Shown here one piece after another: positions 1 through 5,927 of a stretch of DNA of 64,000 nucleotides. How positions within the stretch are numbered: position 1 is the first letter of the stretch; each line of letters starts with the position of its first letter. The notes below the pieces were generated by a model that worked only from the letters and a program-made list of their open reading frames with translations, was not told where the DNA came from and did no database searches. The DNA is from Dictyostelium discoideum (lineage: Eukaryota), in NCBI GenBank assembly GCA_000004695.1, contig CM000154.2, positions 5,056,001 to 5,120,000 on the forward strand, in the 5' to 3' direction. The translations under genes were made by a program, and so were the position numbers.

Positions 1-6
1 AAAAGA

Positions 7-1020
7 ATGGATCCAGAATCATTTGGTTTAGATAAAACAGCTATTGAAATTTGTAATAGTTATATGCCAGTATTAGATATTGAACCAAGATTAATTAGAG
101 AAGGTTTTAAATCATTATATGATATTCAAAAGAAACATATTAGTAAAACCAAACAATATCAATTAAATAAAGAGAATGGTGATAGTTTAATGGATGTTCA
201 TTTCTTTTATCCAAGTGGTTATGAACAAAATCCAGTCGACCATAAATATAAAGCAATATTTTATATTCACGGTGGTGGTTTTATGGTTGACGGTATTAAA
301 AAATTACCAAGAGAAATTAGTGATAGAACAAATTCAATTTTAATTTATCCAGATTATGGATTAACACCAGAGTTTAAATATCCATTAGGTTTAAAACAAT
401 GCTACCAATTATTCACAGATATAATGAATGGCAATTTCAACCCATTCAATGATTTAATCAATGATTCAATTTCAATAGTTGGTGAGAGTTCAGGTGGAAA
501 TTTCGCACTTTCTCTACCATTAATGTTAAAATTAAATAATTCAACATTTTTTAAGAAAATTTCAAAAGTTTTAGTATACTATCCAATTACAGATTGCAAT
601 TTTGAAACACCATCCTATAATAGATTCTCAGAGAAATTCTATTTAACAAAGGAAGGTATGAAATGGTGTTGGAATCATTATACAAATAATGATTCCGAGA
701 GGGATGAAATCACTTGTTGTCCATTGAAAGCCACAATCGATCAATTAAAAGATTTTCCAGAAACTTTGGTTATCACTGCTGAAACCGATGTCTTAAGTTC
801 TGAAGGTGAACAATTTGGTTTAAAATTATCAAATGCAAATGTTAAAGTTTCAGTTTTAAGAATTTTAAAAACAATTCATGGTTTCGTTTCACTTGACCAA
901 ACAAATGATAGTATCGCTTGTAGAGTTGGTATGGATTTATCGATGAACTTTTTAAATAATATCTCAAATAATTCAATTATTAATGAAAATAATAATAAAA
1001 CTTTATTAAAATTACTTTAA
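7..1020 (+). CDS. alpha/beta-hydrolase fold-3 esterase/lipase (arylacetamide deacetylase / hormone-sensitive-lipase-like)
   Basis: Single 337-aa ORF. Contains the HGGGF oxyanion-hole motif, the GESSGG nucleophile elbow (GxSxG) and a C-terminal TIHGF catalytic His motif, which together define the Abhydrolase_3 family. The ATG sits at the window edge, so an upstream exon cannot be excluded. Confidence 0.8.
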   Translation: MDPESFGLDKTAIEICNSYMPVLDIEPRLIREGFKSLYDIQKKHISKTKQYQLNKENGDSLMDVHFFYPSGYEQNPVDHKYKAIFYIHGGGFMVDGIKKLPREISDRTNSILIYPDYGLTPEFKYPLGLKQCYQLFTDIMNGNFNPFNDLINDSISIVGESSGGNFALSLPLMLKLNNSTFFKKISKVLVYYPITDCNFETPSYNRFSEKFYLTKEGMKWCWNHYTNNDSERDEITCCPLKATIDQLKDFPETLVITAETDVLSSEGEQFGLKLSNANVKVSVLRILKTIHGFVSLDQTNDSIACRVGMDLSMNFLNNISNNSIINENNNKTLLKLL

Positions 1021-1120
1021 AAAATAAATAAATAAATAAAAATATATATTTTAAAATAAATAAATATTTATATATTATACAATGATATTACTTGTTTATT
1101 TAAATAAAAATGATACTATT

Positions 1121-1960
1121 TTAAATAATAATAATAATTATTATTATATAATTTGTAATTGTACCAGTTCTCCATTCATTATTAATACATGGATTACCAC
1201 CACGATCTCTGTCATAATAGTCACAAGTGTTTCTATTGCATTGAGAATCAGTACTACATGGTACTTTAACTGAGAATTCGATTGGGTTATGATAACAACC
1301 ATATAACATTGAGCAAAAATCAGCTGTACAAGGGTCTTTATTTAAAATTAAATTTTAATGTTAGAAAAAATAATTTAAAATATTAAATTTAAAATTCTTA
1401 ATTAAAAATACTTACTATTATCATCACAATTCATTGGGGTTATATTCACATCCTTTTTCACCACAAGTATCAAGTGAACATGCATCATAATCTGAACAAC
1501 GAGTTTCATAATGATAACAATATCCACGGAAATCACAAAAATCAACTGTACAAGGATCTGGTTTTGTTTTTTTAAATTTATTTTTATTTTTAATAATTTT
1601 GAAAAAAATATTTAAATTTTAATAATAAAAATAAATTTACATACTATTATCGTTTCATTTTTGTTCACATGATTGAGTTGGTTCTGGTGGATTTACTGGT
1701 GCGTTGACACAACCATATGGACCACAACTATCAATTGTATTAAAATTTCCATCATTACCAGTATCAGCAATTTGATAACAACTTCCAGTATTTTCATCAC
1801 AATGATTGGTATGACAAATATCAACATTACTTTGTGGGCATATATATATATATATTTACTCGTTTCAAAACAACCAAACATTGGAGAACAACCAAAAATT
1901 TTACAATTTGTATTCATACTTGAACAATTTAATTTTTTATAATTATATAGTGGAGCACCT
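1121..1960 (-). CDS. cysteine-rich modular protein with three homologous Cys modules in three exon-like blocks (gene or pseudogene, structure unresolved)
   Basis: Minus-strand translation gives three blocks. Block 1 (about 1690-1917): MNTNCKIFGCSPMFGCFETS...NVDICHTNHCDENTGSCYQIADTGNDGNFNTIDSCGPYGCVNAPVNPPEPTQSCEQK. Block 2 (about 1440-1555): PDPCTVDFCDFRGYCYHYETRCSDYDACSLDTCGEKGCEYNPNEL. Block 3 (about 1160-1330): DPCTADFCSMLYGCYHNPIEFSVKVPCSTDSQCNRNTCDYYDRDRGGNPCINNEW. The blocks are separated by AT-rich intron-like spacers with GTAAGT/GTATGT donors. Blocks 1 and 2 each reach an in-frame stop just before their donor-like motif, and a (TA)9 tract at 1846-1864 breaks the frame in block 1, so exact exon joins could not be established. 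Confidence 0.3.
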
Positions 1961-2334
1961 TTTACAATTGTTATTGTTAAATAAATAATTAAAAATGTTA
2001 AATATAAAATTTTTGTCTTTTTTTTTTTATTAAATATTTTTTTTTTTATATTTTATTATAAAAATATACAAATATTGGAAATTATTTAATTAATTTAACA
2101 AAACTATTTTTTTTTTTTATAGGAAAGTTTTTTTTTTTTTTTATTTTTTTTAAATGTTTATTTTATTTATTATTGATTGATAGTTTTTAAATAAACATTT
2201 AATTTATTTATTATTGATTGCTAGTTTTTAAAAAAAAAAAATATATATATTTGTTTAAACTAGATGATGGATTCTATTTTTAGAGAAAATAATGAAAATT
2301 AAGGTGCTTTTTTTTTTTGATAATTAATTAATTT

Positions 2335-2368
<34 letters not shown>

Positions 2369-2539
2369 AATGTTTCTTTATTTTTATTTTTTTTATTTTA
2401 CTTTTTAAATATATTGAAAAAATAAAAGAGGTATACTATTTATAAATTAAACTAAACTTTTAAAAGAGATGATTATATAGATTTACATTTTTGAATATTT
2501 TTTTTTTTTTTTTTTTTTTTTTTCATAAAAATAATAAAC

Positions 2540-2590
2540 TTATTGTTCTTTTGAAAAATCTATATTTGAGTGTTGTTCTGGTTGTTCTGG

Positions 2591-2621
<31 letters not shown>

Positions 2622-3400
2622 AATTCAGTATCATTTGAAGAGTTAATACCTTTTTCTTTATTTTTTTCATCAATTGCTTGAGAGGTTTCAGTTTGAATTT
2701 GTTGAACTTCTTGTTTAATAAAAGTACCAAAACTTGAAACTTTATTTACGATTGGTGAAACTGTACTATTTTCTTCGGCTGCTTTCATTAAATTGGAAGC
2801 TTGTTGAGAGATCATATCACTTGCACTCTTAAAGAAACCTGAGATTTGGAATCTTTCATCGAGTGCATTTGCTCTCTCTACAACTGCACCCTTAATGGCA
2901 GCGGCACTCTCAGAAATGTGAAGGTTATTATCAATTTCATTTGCTTTTGCTTTGACAGCTTCAGCTCCAACTTTAAGTTTTAATGAAATCATATGTTCTT
3001 CATCAACTTGACGTGCTTTAATGGCAGCGTCTTGTCCAACACTATAACCTGCTGCAATAATTGATGCAACAACAGAGGTTTTACTTCTTTCATTATCTGG
3101 CACACTATGTTCTCTATTTACAATGTCTTCTTGTGGTTGACTAACATATTGTTGTTGTTGTGGTTGTTGTTCACCACTGAGATTATTAAATTGTTGTTGT
3201 TGAGAAAATTGTTGTGTTAAATCAAACTCTAATTCTGGTGTAAATTGAACAACTTGAATTACTTTATCTACAATTAATGCATTTGTTAATAATAAAGCTG
3301 TTTTTGCAGCTGAATCTGATTCAAATACTACTATTGCTTGTTGTGAACTACCAGTTGGGTCACTAAAAATAATAATAATAATAACAATAAAAAAATTAGT

Positions 3401-3432
<32 letters not shown>

Positions 3433-3585
3433 AAAAAAAAAAAAAAACGTTAGAAAAAAAGAGTAAGCTTACTTTCTTAAAAATAAATTAACAATTCTTC
3501 CACAAAATGAGAAAAAATCTGAAACTGTTTTAGTATTTGCTTTCAATGAAATATTTGAAACATAAACTGTGAAATCTGGATTCAT
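2540..3585 (-). CDS. Vip1-like RRM RNA-binding protein
   Basis: Two exons on the minus strand: 3473..3585 and 2540..3362. Exon 1 reads MNPDFTVYVSNISLKANTKTVSDFFSFCGRIVNLFLR; the segment ISDFFSFCG matches the RRM N-terminus of S. pombe Vip1. The donor is AA|GTAAGC at 3467-3472 (phase 2) and the acceptor is TTTTTAG at 3363-3364. Exon 2 stays in one frame through a Gln-rich region to the stop at 2540, giving 311 aa. Confidence 0.65.
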
Positions 3586-4315: not shown

Positions 4316-5624
4316 TTATTTTATTTTTATTTTTTTTTTTAATGAAAACTTACCAACAGTAACTAATAAAGCAGCATAATTAATGCAAAGTTCTCTATCT
4401 TCATTTGGAATATTTTTTTGATGAAGAATTAAGTAAAATACATTAACATAAGAAGCACCACCTAAAAGACCACAATAAACCATGAGAATAAAGAGTACCC
4501 AAACAGAGGTGACCATTTTATATTTTGCTTGTATGATCCAAAAGACCATATTAATACCTTGAAGGATGGTGATAACACCAATATGTTTGATTTTAACGAA
4601 TTGAAGTGAAGAACGTGAGATTAATACACCCAATTGATAACAAAAACTAAAGATTGCAAATGCATTTGCAATGAAGAAATTATCATTGTTTGGATCCTTT
4701 TTCAAGGCAAGATCAGCACCACCTACACTTGCAACATATTCAAAGAAATAAACCAATGCTAAATTGACAGCATTGAACCAAACTAAACGTGCACAACGAA
4801 TATATCTTTGTTTTTTAGTTTCACCTGGTGGTGCAACTTCAGCACCACCACCATCATCTATATCTTCAATAAGTTGGTCCTTTTTAACCAATGATTGTTT
4901 CTCTGTATATTTGCTGTTATTGCTGCTATTGTTACTATTATTGTGGTTATCTGTTCTATCTTCTTCTAAATGATTTGGTACTTTTAAACCGAAAAAGAAT
5001 AAAAGGAAATAAACAGCAACAGTTGGTAACATCATATAAAAGATTGTTGAATTCGATAAACCTGCTGCAACCATTGCTATATAAAACAATGAACCACATA
5101 CACCTGCAATACCTGTACCACTTGACCAACCATTAACTAGCTCTGCAGGAAATTTCTTCATGTATGAGAGAATTACACTCTCACCAAATGAACTTGCAAT
5201 ACCAACAAATGCTATGGCTGCTATACAAAATCCAAAATTAACATATACTGATAATGCTACACCAATTAAACCAATTGACATAAATAAACAATTTACTACT
5301 ATCTTTAATTTCGAATTAACATTTTCAATTAAAAATGTATTAACCACTAAAAAATAAAAAAAAATAAAAATAATAATAATTATAAAAATTAATTTTATAT
5401 GTTTTTTTTTTTTATTTTTTTTTTTTAATAATAATACACTTACATCTTGAAACTAAACCAAATGCAATATTTGCCCAAAGAATAATTCCAATATTTTTAG
5501 AGTTGTGAAAATAAGCTGATAAGTTACCACTTGCTGCATTTACAACGCAATATGAAAAATTATTAATATTTCCCATAAAATGGAAACTAATCCAATTTCT
5601 AATAAATGTATAATCCTTTCCCAT
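4316..5624 (-). CDS. cln3: CLN3/battenin lysosomal membrane protein
   Basis: Two exons, 5444..5624 and 4316..5346. Exon 1 contains NNFSYCVVNAASGNL (human CLN3 has CNNFSYVVMLSAAHDIL). Exon 2 contains FPAELVNGWSSGTGIAGVCGSLFY (human has [20 protein letters not shown]) and multiple transmembrane segments. The donor is AGAT|GTAAGT (phase 1); the acceptor TTTTTTAG lets the split codon read TTG. Confidence 0.85.
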
Positions 5625-5760
5625 TTTGTTTATACTATTTAAATTAATAAATAAATAAATAATGAAAACAAATATATATATTTATCGTTTGTTGAATAGT
5701 ATTTTAAATTTTAATATTGATATTTTAAAAAAATAAAATAAAAAAAAAAAAAAAAAAAAA

Positions 5761-5775
5761 AAAAATTGTGGGGGG
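5761..5775. promoter_or_regulatory. G-rich box (ttgtgggggggc) in the divergent cln3 / 6119-gene intergenic region; candidate G-box-type element
   Basis: An isolated G7 run in otherwise more than 90% A+T DNA, about 140 bp upstream of the cln3 ATG. Dictyostelium GBF-responsive promoters use G-rich/GT-rich boxes. Inference only. Confidence 0.2.
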
Positions 5776-5884
5776 GCATAAATAATCAAAATAATAAATT
5801 TTTTTTTTTTGAAAAAAAAAAAAAAAAAAAACCAAAAAAAAAAAATTTATTTTAATTATTTTGGAAAATTCAAACTCTTTTTCT

Positions 5885-5927
<43 letters not shown>

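Follow-up and report, generated by a model that had tools for sequence, protein, structure and literature searches.

The Cys-rich locus at positions 1121-2019 on the minus strand of the window, the 64,000-nucleotide stretch of Dictyostelium discoideum DNA analysed here, is very probably a non-processed, duplicated pseudogene whose parent is the intact AX4 gene DDB_G0287611. Homology to this gene, parentage, lesions, relaxed constraint and the absence of the duplicated segment from relatives are each documented by the comparisons below, and the features of a duplicated pseudogene are found together: an intact parent on the same chromosome, retained introns and flanks, disabling lesions and relaxed constraint. 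The lesions suggest that the window copy gives rise to no functional protein, and that splicing of any transcript would use the ancestral donors and leave premature stops in the message. The original prediction, placed at 1121-1960, had offered three options, namely three mini-cistrons, a spliced gene with unusual donors and a decaying pseudogene; the last is backed by comparison with an intact parent and eight intact homologues, and by a second copy that has also decayed, and the remnant runs to 2019, about 60 nt further than had been supposed.

The window is very AT-rich, with a G+C content of approximately 16-36% in 2-kb bins, and positions 1050-2150 (1101 nt) match the D. discoideum AX4 chromosome assembly CM142511.1 at the DDB_G0291153 locus with zero mismatches. 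Three-frame translation places three Cys-rich blocks in a single minus-strand frame, at approximately 1837-1655, 1557-1427 and 1335-1148. Block 1 reads ...VDICHTNHCDENTGSCYQ...SCEQK followed by a stop, block 2 reads DPCTVDFCDFRGYCYHYETRCSDYDACSLDTCGEKGCEYNPNEL followed by four stops, and block 3 reads DPCTADFCSMLYGCYH... in the same minus-strand translation. The three blocks are homologous, as had been proposed, whereas the DPCT.DFC consensus ascribed to all of them opens blocks 2 and 3 only, block 1 carrying a looser version of the repeat. A translation that bridges the lesions matches the Pfam family PF00526 (Dicty_CTDC) in four stretches, with 73.1 bits against a cut-off of 27 and E=1.5e-20, which is far beyond chance. 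A tblastn search with the bridged protein as query found no further family members in the 64-kb window apart from the locus itself.

The stop of block 1 is a TGA at 1657-1655, located 10 nt ahead of GTATGT (1644-1639), and the stops of block 2, TGA TGA TAA TAG, run from 1426-1424 onward (1426-1415) and start 8 nt ahead of GTAAGT (1415-1410). In-frame stops thus precede the motif GATAATA/GTAWGT at two blocks as predicted, with a spacing of 8-10 nt and not 10-15 nt, and the motif, described only as donor-like, is shown by intact gene models to be a genuine donor, used in phase 1 by both introns of the ancestral gene. The microsatellite in the first block was likewise recognized correctly in kind, although Tandem Repeats Finder reports the dinucleotide tract in exon 1 as (AT)8, 16 nt at 1840-1855, and not as (TA)9. 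The hydrophobic leader KTKILYLTFLIIYLTITIVKGAP indeed lacks an in-frame ATG, its first codon being AAG at 2019-2017, and it matches MTKILYLTFLIIYL..TIVKGAP of other strains.

The gene structure of the remnant, entirely on the minus strand, was delineated by translation and by alignment to the parent. The exon 1 remnant (1645..2019), aligned to exon 1 of DDB_G0287611, comprises the signal-like leader and the first Cys repeats. It is followed by ancestral intron 1 (1558..1644; 87 nt, phase 1), with its donor GTATGT and acceptor CAG intact and a 21-nt deletion relative to the parent, and by the exon 2 remnant (1416..1557), which holds the DPCTVDFC... module. Ancestral intron 2 (1336..1415; 80 nt, phase 1) retains its donor GTAAGT and acceptor AAG, and the exon 3 remnant (1148..1335) holds the DPCTADFC... 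module up to the former stop codon.

A protein search returned DDB_G0291153 (173 aa), DDB_G0291053 (163 aa) and a cluster of intact proteins of 239-242 aa, drawn from AX4, two other D. discoideum assemblies, two D. cf. discoideum assemblies, D. dimigraforme, D. citrinum and D. firmibasis; a 204-aa citrinum model was left out of the comparisons. The AX4 member of this cluster, DDB_G0287611 (UniProt Q54K45), is an intact protein of 239 aa with a hydrophobic signal-like leader, Dicty_CTDC repeats and 34 cysteines. By synteny it occupies the ancestral locus, on the left arm of chromosome 5 at about 0.5 Mb, where the order is an upstream gene, the CTDC gene, a convergent 337-aa Abhydrolase_3 esterase and PCNA. 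Two other D. discoideum assemblies and D. cf. discoideum share these neighbours with AX4; the upstream gene encodes 336-353 aa, or 329 aa in D. cf. discoideum, and a BB_PF gene comes next after PCNA in the two loci that reach that far.

Exon-intron models were built for the parent and its D. cf. discoideum orthologue so that their translations equal the database proteins exactly. Both reconstructed genes have two phase-1 introns, with donors GATAATA/GTATGT and GATAATA/GT(A/G)AGT and acceptors CAG/ATCCTTGT and AAG/ACCCTTGT, the parental donors being GATAATA/GTATGT and GATAATA/GTAAGT, both in phase 1. The intact proteins read without interruption through the sites at which the window copy is broken: ...FETSKCPQSNV... 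at the TA tract, ...CEQKCNDNNPCTVDFC... at the TGA and ...CEYRPMNCDDNNPCTADFC... at the frameshift. Their N-termini read MTK/MSK/MFK... and their C-termini ...ITN-stop. The D. cf. discoideum gene ACTFIY_002504 was considered as an orthologue of the window locus and rejected, synteny identifying it as the orthologue of the AX4 parent DDB_G0287611. ACTFIR_009477 was rejected as a member of the pseudogene lineage, as its locus is unrelated and the 13 codons missing from the window copy are still present in it; it is a 177-aa relative from another strain, with a Thr/Gln/Pro-rich insert.

Parent and window copy agree in exon-intron layout, donors, acceptors, leader and repeat order, their aligned coding sequences share approximately 96% nucleotide identity (dN = dS = 0.04), and each has a convergent esterase as its neighbour. 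Unlike the parent, the window copy has lost its start and stop codons and 8 of 34 cysteines; its coding sequence is further damaged by one nonsense codon, two frameshifts and the loss of 39 nt, and its neighbours on the chromosome are different, with an RRM gene on one side and a 377-aa gene on the other. A second decayed AX4 copy, DDB_G0291053 (UniProt Q54FB3), is located about 230 kb away and is hereafter called copy 2.

Eleven lesions of the window copy were called column by column against DDB_G0287611 and polarised with the D. cf. discoideum orthologue; all of them concern the minus-strand gene. The start codon (2017..2019) has changed from ATG to AAG through T>A at 2018, the intact orthologue reading AAAAATGACAAAAATT and the window AAAAAAGACAAAAATT; methionine occupies this column in 8/8 intact homologues, and copy 2, with unrelated DNA at its 5' end, is not comparable here. 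Cys24>Tyr lies at 1940, where copy 2 aligns poorly and its status is uncertain. Between the codons for Lys53 and Cys54, a 14-nt TA insertion (1842-1855) shifts the frame by +2, with an 8-nt insertion at the same site in copy 2. Cys80>Gly (1759) is absent from copy 2, whereas the nonsense change of Cys114, TGT>TGA (1655..1657), is also present there and affects a residue that is cysteine in 8/8 intact homologues. An extra base in a CCCC run (1436..1439, insertion at 1439), also in copy 2, causes a +1 frameshift and thereby brings TGA TGA TAA TAG (1426-1415) into frame, at a site where intact genes read CEY(R/N/K)PMNCDDN.

In exon 3, Cys185>Phe (1275) is absent from copy 2, and a 39-nt in-frame deletion (1232..1233), common to both copies, removes the 13 codons NFCETYSCDLSSN, including two invariant cysteines. 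Cys222>Arg (1204) and Cys232>Trp (1172) also occur in copy 2. The stop codon (1150-1148) has changed from TAA to TAT at 1148, a change absent from copy 2, and past the lost stop the open frame continues via YIIIIIIII to a TAA at 1123-1121. Altogether, 34 cysteines are invariant across the eight intact homologues, which represent at least five species, and 8/34 are missing from the window copy, which argues that the locus is DNA derived from the family and not a functional Dicty_CTDC member. The regular Cys spacing of Dicty_CTDC repeats is not maintained in every repeat, and a secretory leader with an initiation codon is not found, the hydrophobic leader being kept and its ATG now reading AAG.

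Window copy and copy 2 thus have six lesions in common (TA insertion at the same site, TGA, +1 base, 39-nt deletion, C222R and C232W). Their recurrence indicates that they are real and not sequencing errors, and that the gene was already dead before the second duplication. Copy 2 also has lesions of its own: single nucleotides have been deleted at two places, a further Cys has become Tyr, and unrelated DNA has taken the place of its 5' end. Three features that the window copy lacks, Cys80, Cys185 and the stop codon, are retained in copy 2. Each of the two copies is adjoined by an intact copy of the esterase.

The duplicated segment measures approximately 2.7 kb. Its in-window part covers 1..2325, with the far end about 360 nt outside window position 1, and it carries the CTDC gene with its two introns and the convergent esterase gene, flanked by approximately 300 nt upstream of the former and about 400 nt past the latter. 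Searches of these AT-rich loci with blastn were rerun with a bit-score floor, unfiltered runs having returned thousands of low-complexity matches. Window positions 2318..1 are 91.2% identical to the AX4 parent locus (L004 4709..7066). Over the 2.7-2.8 kb block (L003 3600-6332 at the window locus), identity is 89.6% to the parent (L004) and 93.8% to copy 2 (L002), and copy 2 is 87.5% identical to the parent locus. Only this block is common to the window locus, DDB_G0291053 and the parent region. Introns and flanks are retained in the window copy, with no sign of retro-copying.

At the chromosomal site of the window, the order is CLN3, an RRM gene, the block and a 377-aa gene. Another D. discoideum assembly, D. 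cf. discoideum and D. firmibasis all lack the block here, with about 250 nt between the RRM gene and the directly adjoining gene of 378-384 aa. A comparison with relatives had been suggested as a search for frame decay; its outcome favours a pseudogene, in a different form, as the relatives hold the parent gene only and have no orthologous locus. No target-site duplication was recognized at the segment junctions, both of which lie in poly(A)/poly(T) runs.

The esterase within the segment (7..1020, plus strand) serves as its internal control. It is an intact 337-aa ORF that corresponds to Vegetative-specific protein H5 (UniProt P14326) and matches Abhydrolase_3 (PF07859, E=7e-40). All three AX4 copies have 337 codons without stops, share 98-99% amino-acid identity and show dN/dS values of 0.2-0.3. 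In the 90% cluster, AX4 contributes three esterases and each other strain one. H5 esterase (P14326) also has an old cDNA-derived entry.

Nei-Gojobori dN/dS values, which rest on small counts of changes and are clear in direction, are 1.00 for parent versus window copy, 1.52 for window copy versus copy 2 and 0.35 for parent versus orthologue, and they indicate that selective constraint on the window copy has been relaxed. Of 21 substitutions assigned to the lineage of the window copy, 8 fall in Cys codons, which is above expectation (p about 0.006), an excess that simple neutral decay does not predict. In a neighbour-joining tree based on 2080 ungapped columns, window copy and copy 2 are sisters with 99% bootstrap, and the pair is placed beside the D. 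discoideum parental clade (93% bootstrap), D. cf. discoideum having split off much deeper. Jukes-Cantor (JC) distances are 0.030 between the window copy and the AX4 parent, likewise 0.030 between the AX4 parent and other strains, and 0.062-0.064 to D. cf. discoideum. Tree and distances together place the duplication after the divergence from D. cf. discoideum, at roughly the time when these D. discoideum lineages parted. The absence of the copies in other strains admits two readings, namely that they were lost there or that they were never present.

In the AX4 annotation, DDB_G0291153 is a protein-coding gene of 173 aa (XP_635363.1, UniProt Q54F27), and the original option of a spliced gene with unusual donors corresponds to this annotation. 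Mapped onto the window, the model has exons at 1917-1880, 1829-1669, 1557-1450 and 1335-1121 on the minus strand; it starts at an internal Met, without the leader, removes the TA tract as a 50-nt "intron" with donor GTTTGG, and skips the TGA via donor GTGAAC and the frameshift via donor GTGAAT. Its junction peptides are ...FGCSPINVDICH... (GCSP-INVDICH), PTQSYPCTVDF and GEKGYPCTADF. That the annotated gene is real, a re-framed young gene in which new donors skip each lesion to yield a leaderless Cys-rich protein, is very unlikely. An open 173-aa frame can be assembled and scores 39.9 bits against Dicty_CTDC, entries exist in both RefSeq and UniProt, and upstream DNA was duplicated along with the gene, so that the co-copied 300 nt or so may include a surviving promoter and the locus may still be transcribed. 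The sister copy DDB_G0291053 also appears in lists of differentially expressed genes (supplementary file 7 of PMC4403905), an appearance that might reflect cross-mapped reads from the near-identical parent. The locus itself appears neither in those lists nor in the supplements of PMC4931340, PMC6198379 and PMC12821622, and a full-text search for gene IDs found no papers naming DDB_G0291153, DDB_G0291053 or the parent DDB_G0287611.

Against the annotated gene, the leader present in all intact homologues is missing, so that a 26-Cys protein would arise in the cytosol, and the 50-nt first intron is cut from ancestral coding sequence. The donor consensus of Dictyostelium is GTAAGT; the model donors depart from it, while the ancestral donors GTATGT and GTAAGT remain intact 24-34 nt downstream of GTGAAC and GTGAAT. 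These two motifs are conserved coding sequence in the intact parent and the D. cf. discoideum orthologue, and in the orthologue they encode the conserved residues CEQ and CEY. A dN/dS of about 1 to 1.5 and the loss of eight invariant cysteines also speak against the model, and the sister model, with its different, unrelated 5' exon and the frame-shifted residues IVVVVHMVVSTHQ, is what an automatic predictor would be expected to produce. The splice pattern of DDB_G0291153 is that of an automatic predictor working round lesions, with GTTTGG, GTGAAC and GTGAAT simply stepping past them, and is no evidence of unusual splicing. A related proposal, in which the copy has been salvaged, its transcription driven by the co-duplicated upstream DNA and every lesion removed by new donors, so as to supply a leaderless 173-aa Cys-repeat protein or a regulatory RNA that would serve a new function peculiar to the AX4/NC4 lineage, is highly improbable; if it were true, the excess of changes in Cys codons (8/21) would reflect selection away from the disulphide fold and not chance.

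Errors of assembly or sequencing in AT-rich DNA could in principle mimic such decay in an intact gene, and two lesions do lie in error-prone simple sequence (the TA tract and the CCCC run). The recurrence of six lesions at the independent paralogous locus of copy 2, the predominance of point substitutions in complex sequence and the flawless esterase in the same segment make this extremely improbable; the 1101 nt compared also agree exactly with CM142511.1, an assembly that may or may not be independent of the source of the window. Recoding, with the TGA read as selenocysteine and the +1 shift as programmed frameshifting, draws on the position of the TGA exactly where all homologues have Cys, a classic Cys/Sec signature, and selenoproteins do occur in Dictyostelium. 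Scanned against Rfam at E up to 10, however, window 1-2600 yielded three chance-level snoRNA/miRNA matches and no SECIS, the convergent esterase gene leaves just 100-130 nt or so of 3' untranslated space, and recoding would repair neither the missing start codon nor the 14-nt insertion, the deletion or the five Cys substitutions, which leaves it a negligible probability. The chance that each exon block is an independently translated mini-cistron is equally minute. Every block ends at a stop, and an internal ATG in block 3 opens a 62-aa ORF (1121-1309), yet that start falls mid-repeat, blocks 1 and 2 have no in-frame ATG, and in the eight intact homologues the blocks are phase-1-joined exons of one protein of 239-242 aa. 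Dictyostelium is not known to translate polycistronic messages in this way.

Under the preferred reading of a duplicated pseudogene, a segment of about 2.7 kb on the left arm of chromosome 5 would have been duplicated into intergenic AT-homopolymer DNA, and would now be present at two further sites on that chromosome, DDB_G0291153 and DDB_G0291053. The copy of the Cys-repeat gene was probably disabled first and then duplicated a second time, with private lesions arising later in each copy; in the window copy these would be the loss of the start, the loss of the stop, Cys>Gly and Cys>Phe. What is seen as stops at the ends of exons is the outcome of one nonsense change and one frameshift, located just upstream of still-intact ancestral donors. 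DDB_G0291153 (Q54F27) and DDB_G0291053 (Q54FB3), hypothetical proteins in RefSeq and UniProt, should be flagged as pseudogenes, and RNA-seq reads assigned to either copy need care because of their 93-97% identity to the parent.

The window locus shares its 24-residue Cys-rich repeat (PF00526 / IPR001673) with EcmA, EcmB, PsiA and PdiA, dictyostelid secreted or matrix proteins that carry Dicty_CTDC repeats (PMC4931340 Table 4; PMC9117722). EcmA and EcmB are very large, with many repeats and developmental roles, whereas the parent DDB_G0287611 is small, at 239 aa. The phenomenon itself is ordinary, and what is new is the re-annotation of two reference "hypothetical proteins" together with the two extra H5 segments of AX4, which has three H5 (cinB-type) esterase segments compared with one in other sequenced strains. 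As in duplicated pseudogenes in general, the copy arose by segmental duplication at the DNA level, retains introns and flanks, and combines multiple lesions with a dN/dS of about 1. It differs from them in nothing essential, the one unusual detail being that the H5 esterase of the duplicated pair has stayed intact while its partner gene has decayed. Each extra segment, with one gene kept and its neighbour lost, provides a clean case of different fates within one segmental duplication.

The duplicated segment carries, beside the decayed Dicty_CTDC gene DDB_G0291153, an intact esterase gene on the plus strand (window 7-1020; Abhydrolase_3, 337 aa) that is convergent with the pseudogene and corresponds in UniProt to Vegetative-specific protein H5 (P14326). 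AX4 possesses three copies of this esterase, one per duplicated segment and 98-99% identical, and its 90% cluster contains a single member in every other sequenced strain versus three in AX4. The segment also includes, 5' of the pseudogene, a tandem repeat comprising two copies of a 41-nt unit (window 2147-2236; 92% match, TRF score 139). On its right-hand side, the insertion site is delimited by a two-exon gene on the minus strand (window 2540-3585, intron 3363-3472), encoding an RRM-domain protein of 311 aa with a poly-Gln tail, whose homologues are recognisable in dictyostelids of other genera, namely Polysphondylium, Tieghemostelium, Heterostelium, Cavenderia and Acytostelium, as well as in many metagenome contigs.

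The intact AX4 parent gene, DDB_G0287611 (L004, the parent locus, 5001-5907), displays private differences from other D. discoideum strains (loci L010 and L011), encompassing a 3-residue deletion within the signal-like leader and the substitutions I38V, S192R, T214I and A219T. The pseudogene retains the ancestral state at all of these sites but 219, where the window copy carries Asp and the second decayed copy carries Gly. Within the pseudogene lineage, 8 of the 21 exonic substitutions (window 1148-1940, minus strand) fall in Cys codons, which constitute 14% of the gene (binomial p ~0.006), and several of these are T>G or T>C changes, opposite to the AT bias of the genome. This excess may be fortuitous, or it may stem from selection or from a mutational effect.

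For DDB_G0291053 (locus L002, 4001-5190), the second decayed AX4 copy, the annotated model takes its 5' exon, MKIKREDIEKHIDNDCQYIQI, from unrelated DNA, and it also contains the frame-shifted residues IVVVVHMVVSTHQ. The identifier of this copy appears among the differential-expression lists of supplementary file 7 (PMC4403905). A 177-aa relative, ACTFIR_009477, is located in the D. discoideum assembly GCA_054859385.1 (locus L006, 4001-4719), at an unrelated locus close to a contig end, with a long Thr/Gln/Pro-rich run (TQTQTQ...) in place of the central repeats; it could represent a further rearranged family member or a further pseudogene.

Comparison of AX4 with GCA_054859385.1, both labelled D. 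discoideum, yielded 90-93% identity across the flanks of the insertion site, with AT-rich intergenic gaps counted (AX4 window locus L003 versus L007, the same site without the segment), and a difference of approximately 3% across the parent-gene segment. Such divergence seems high for a single named species.
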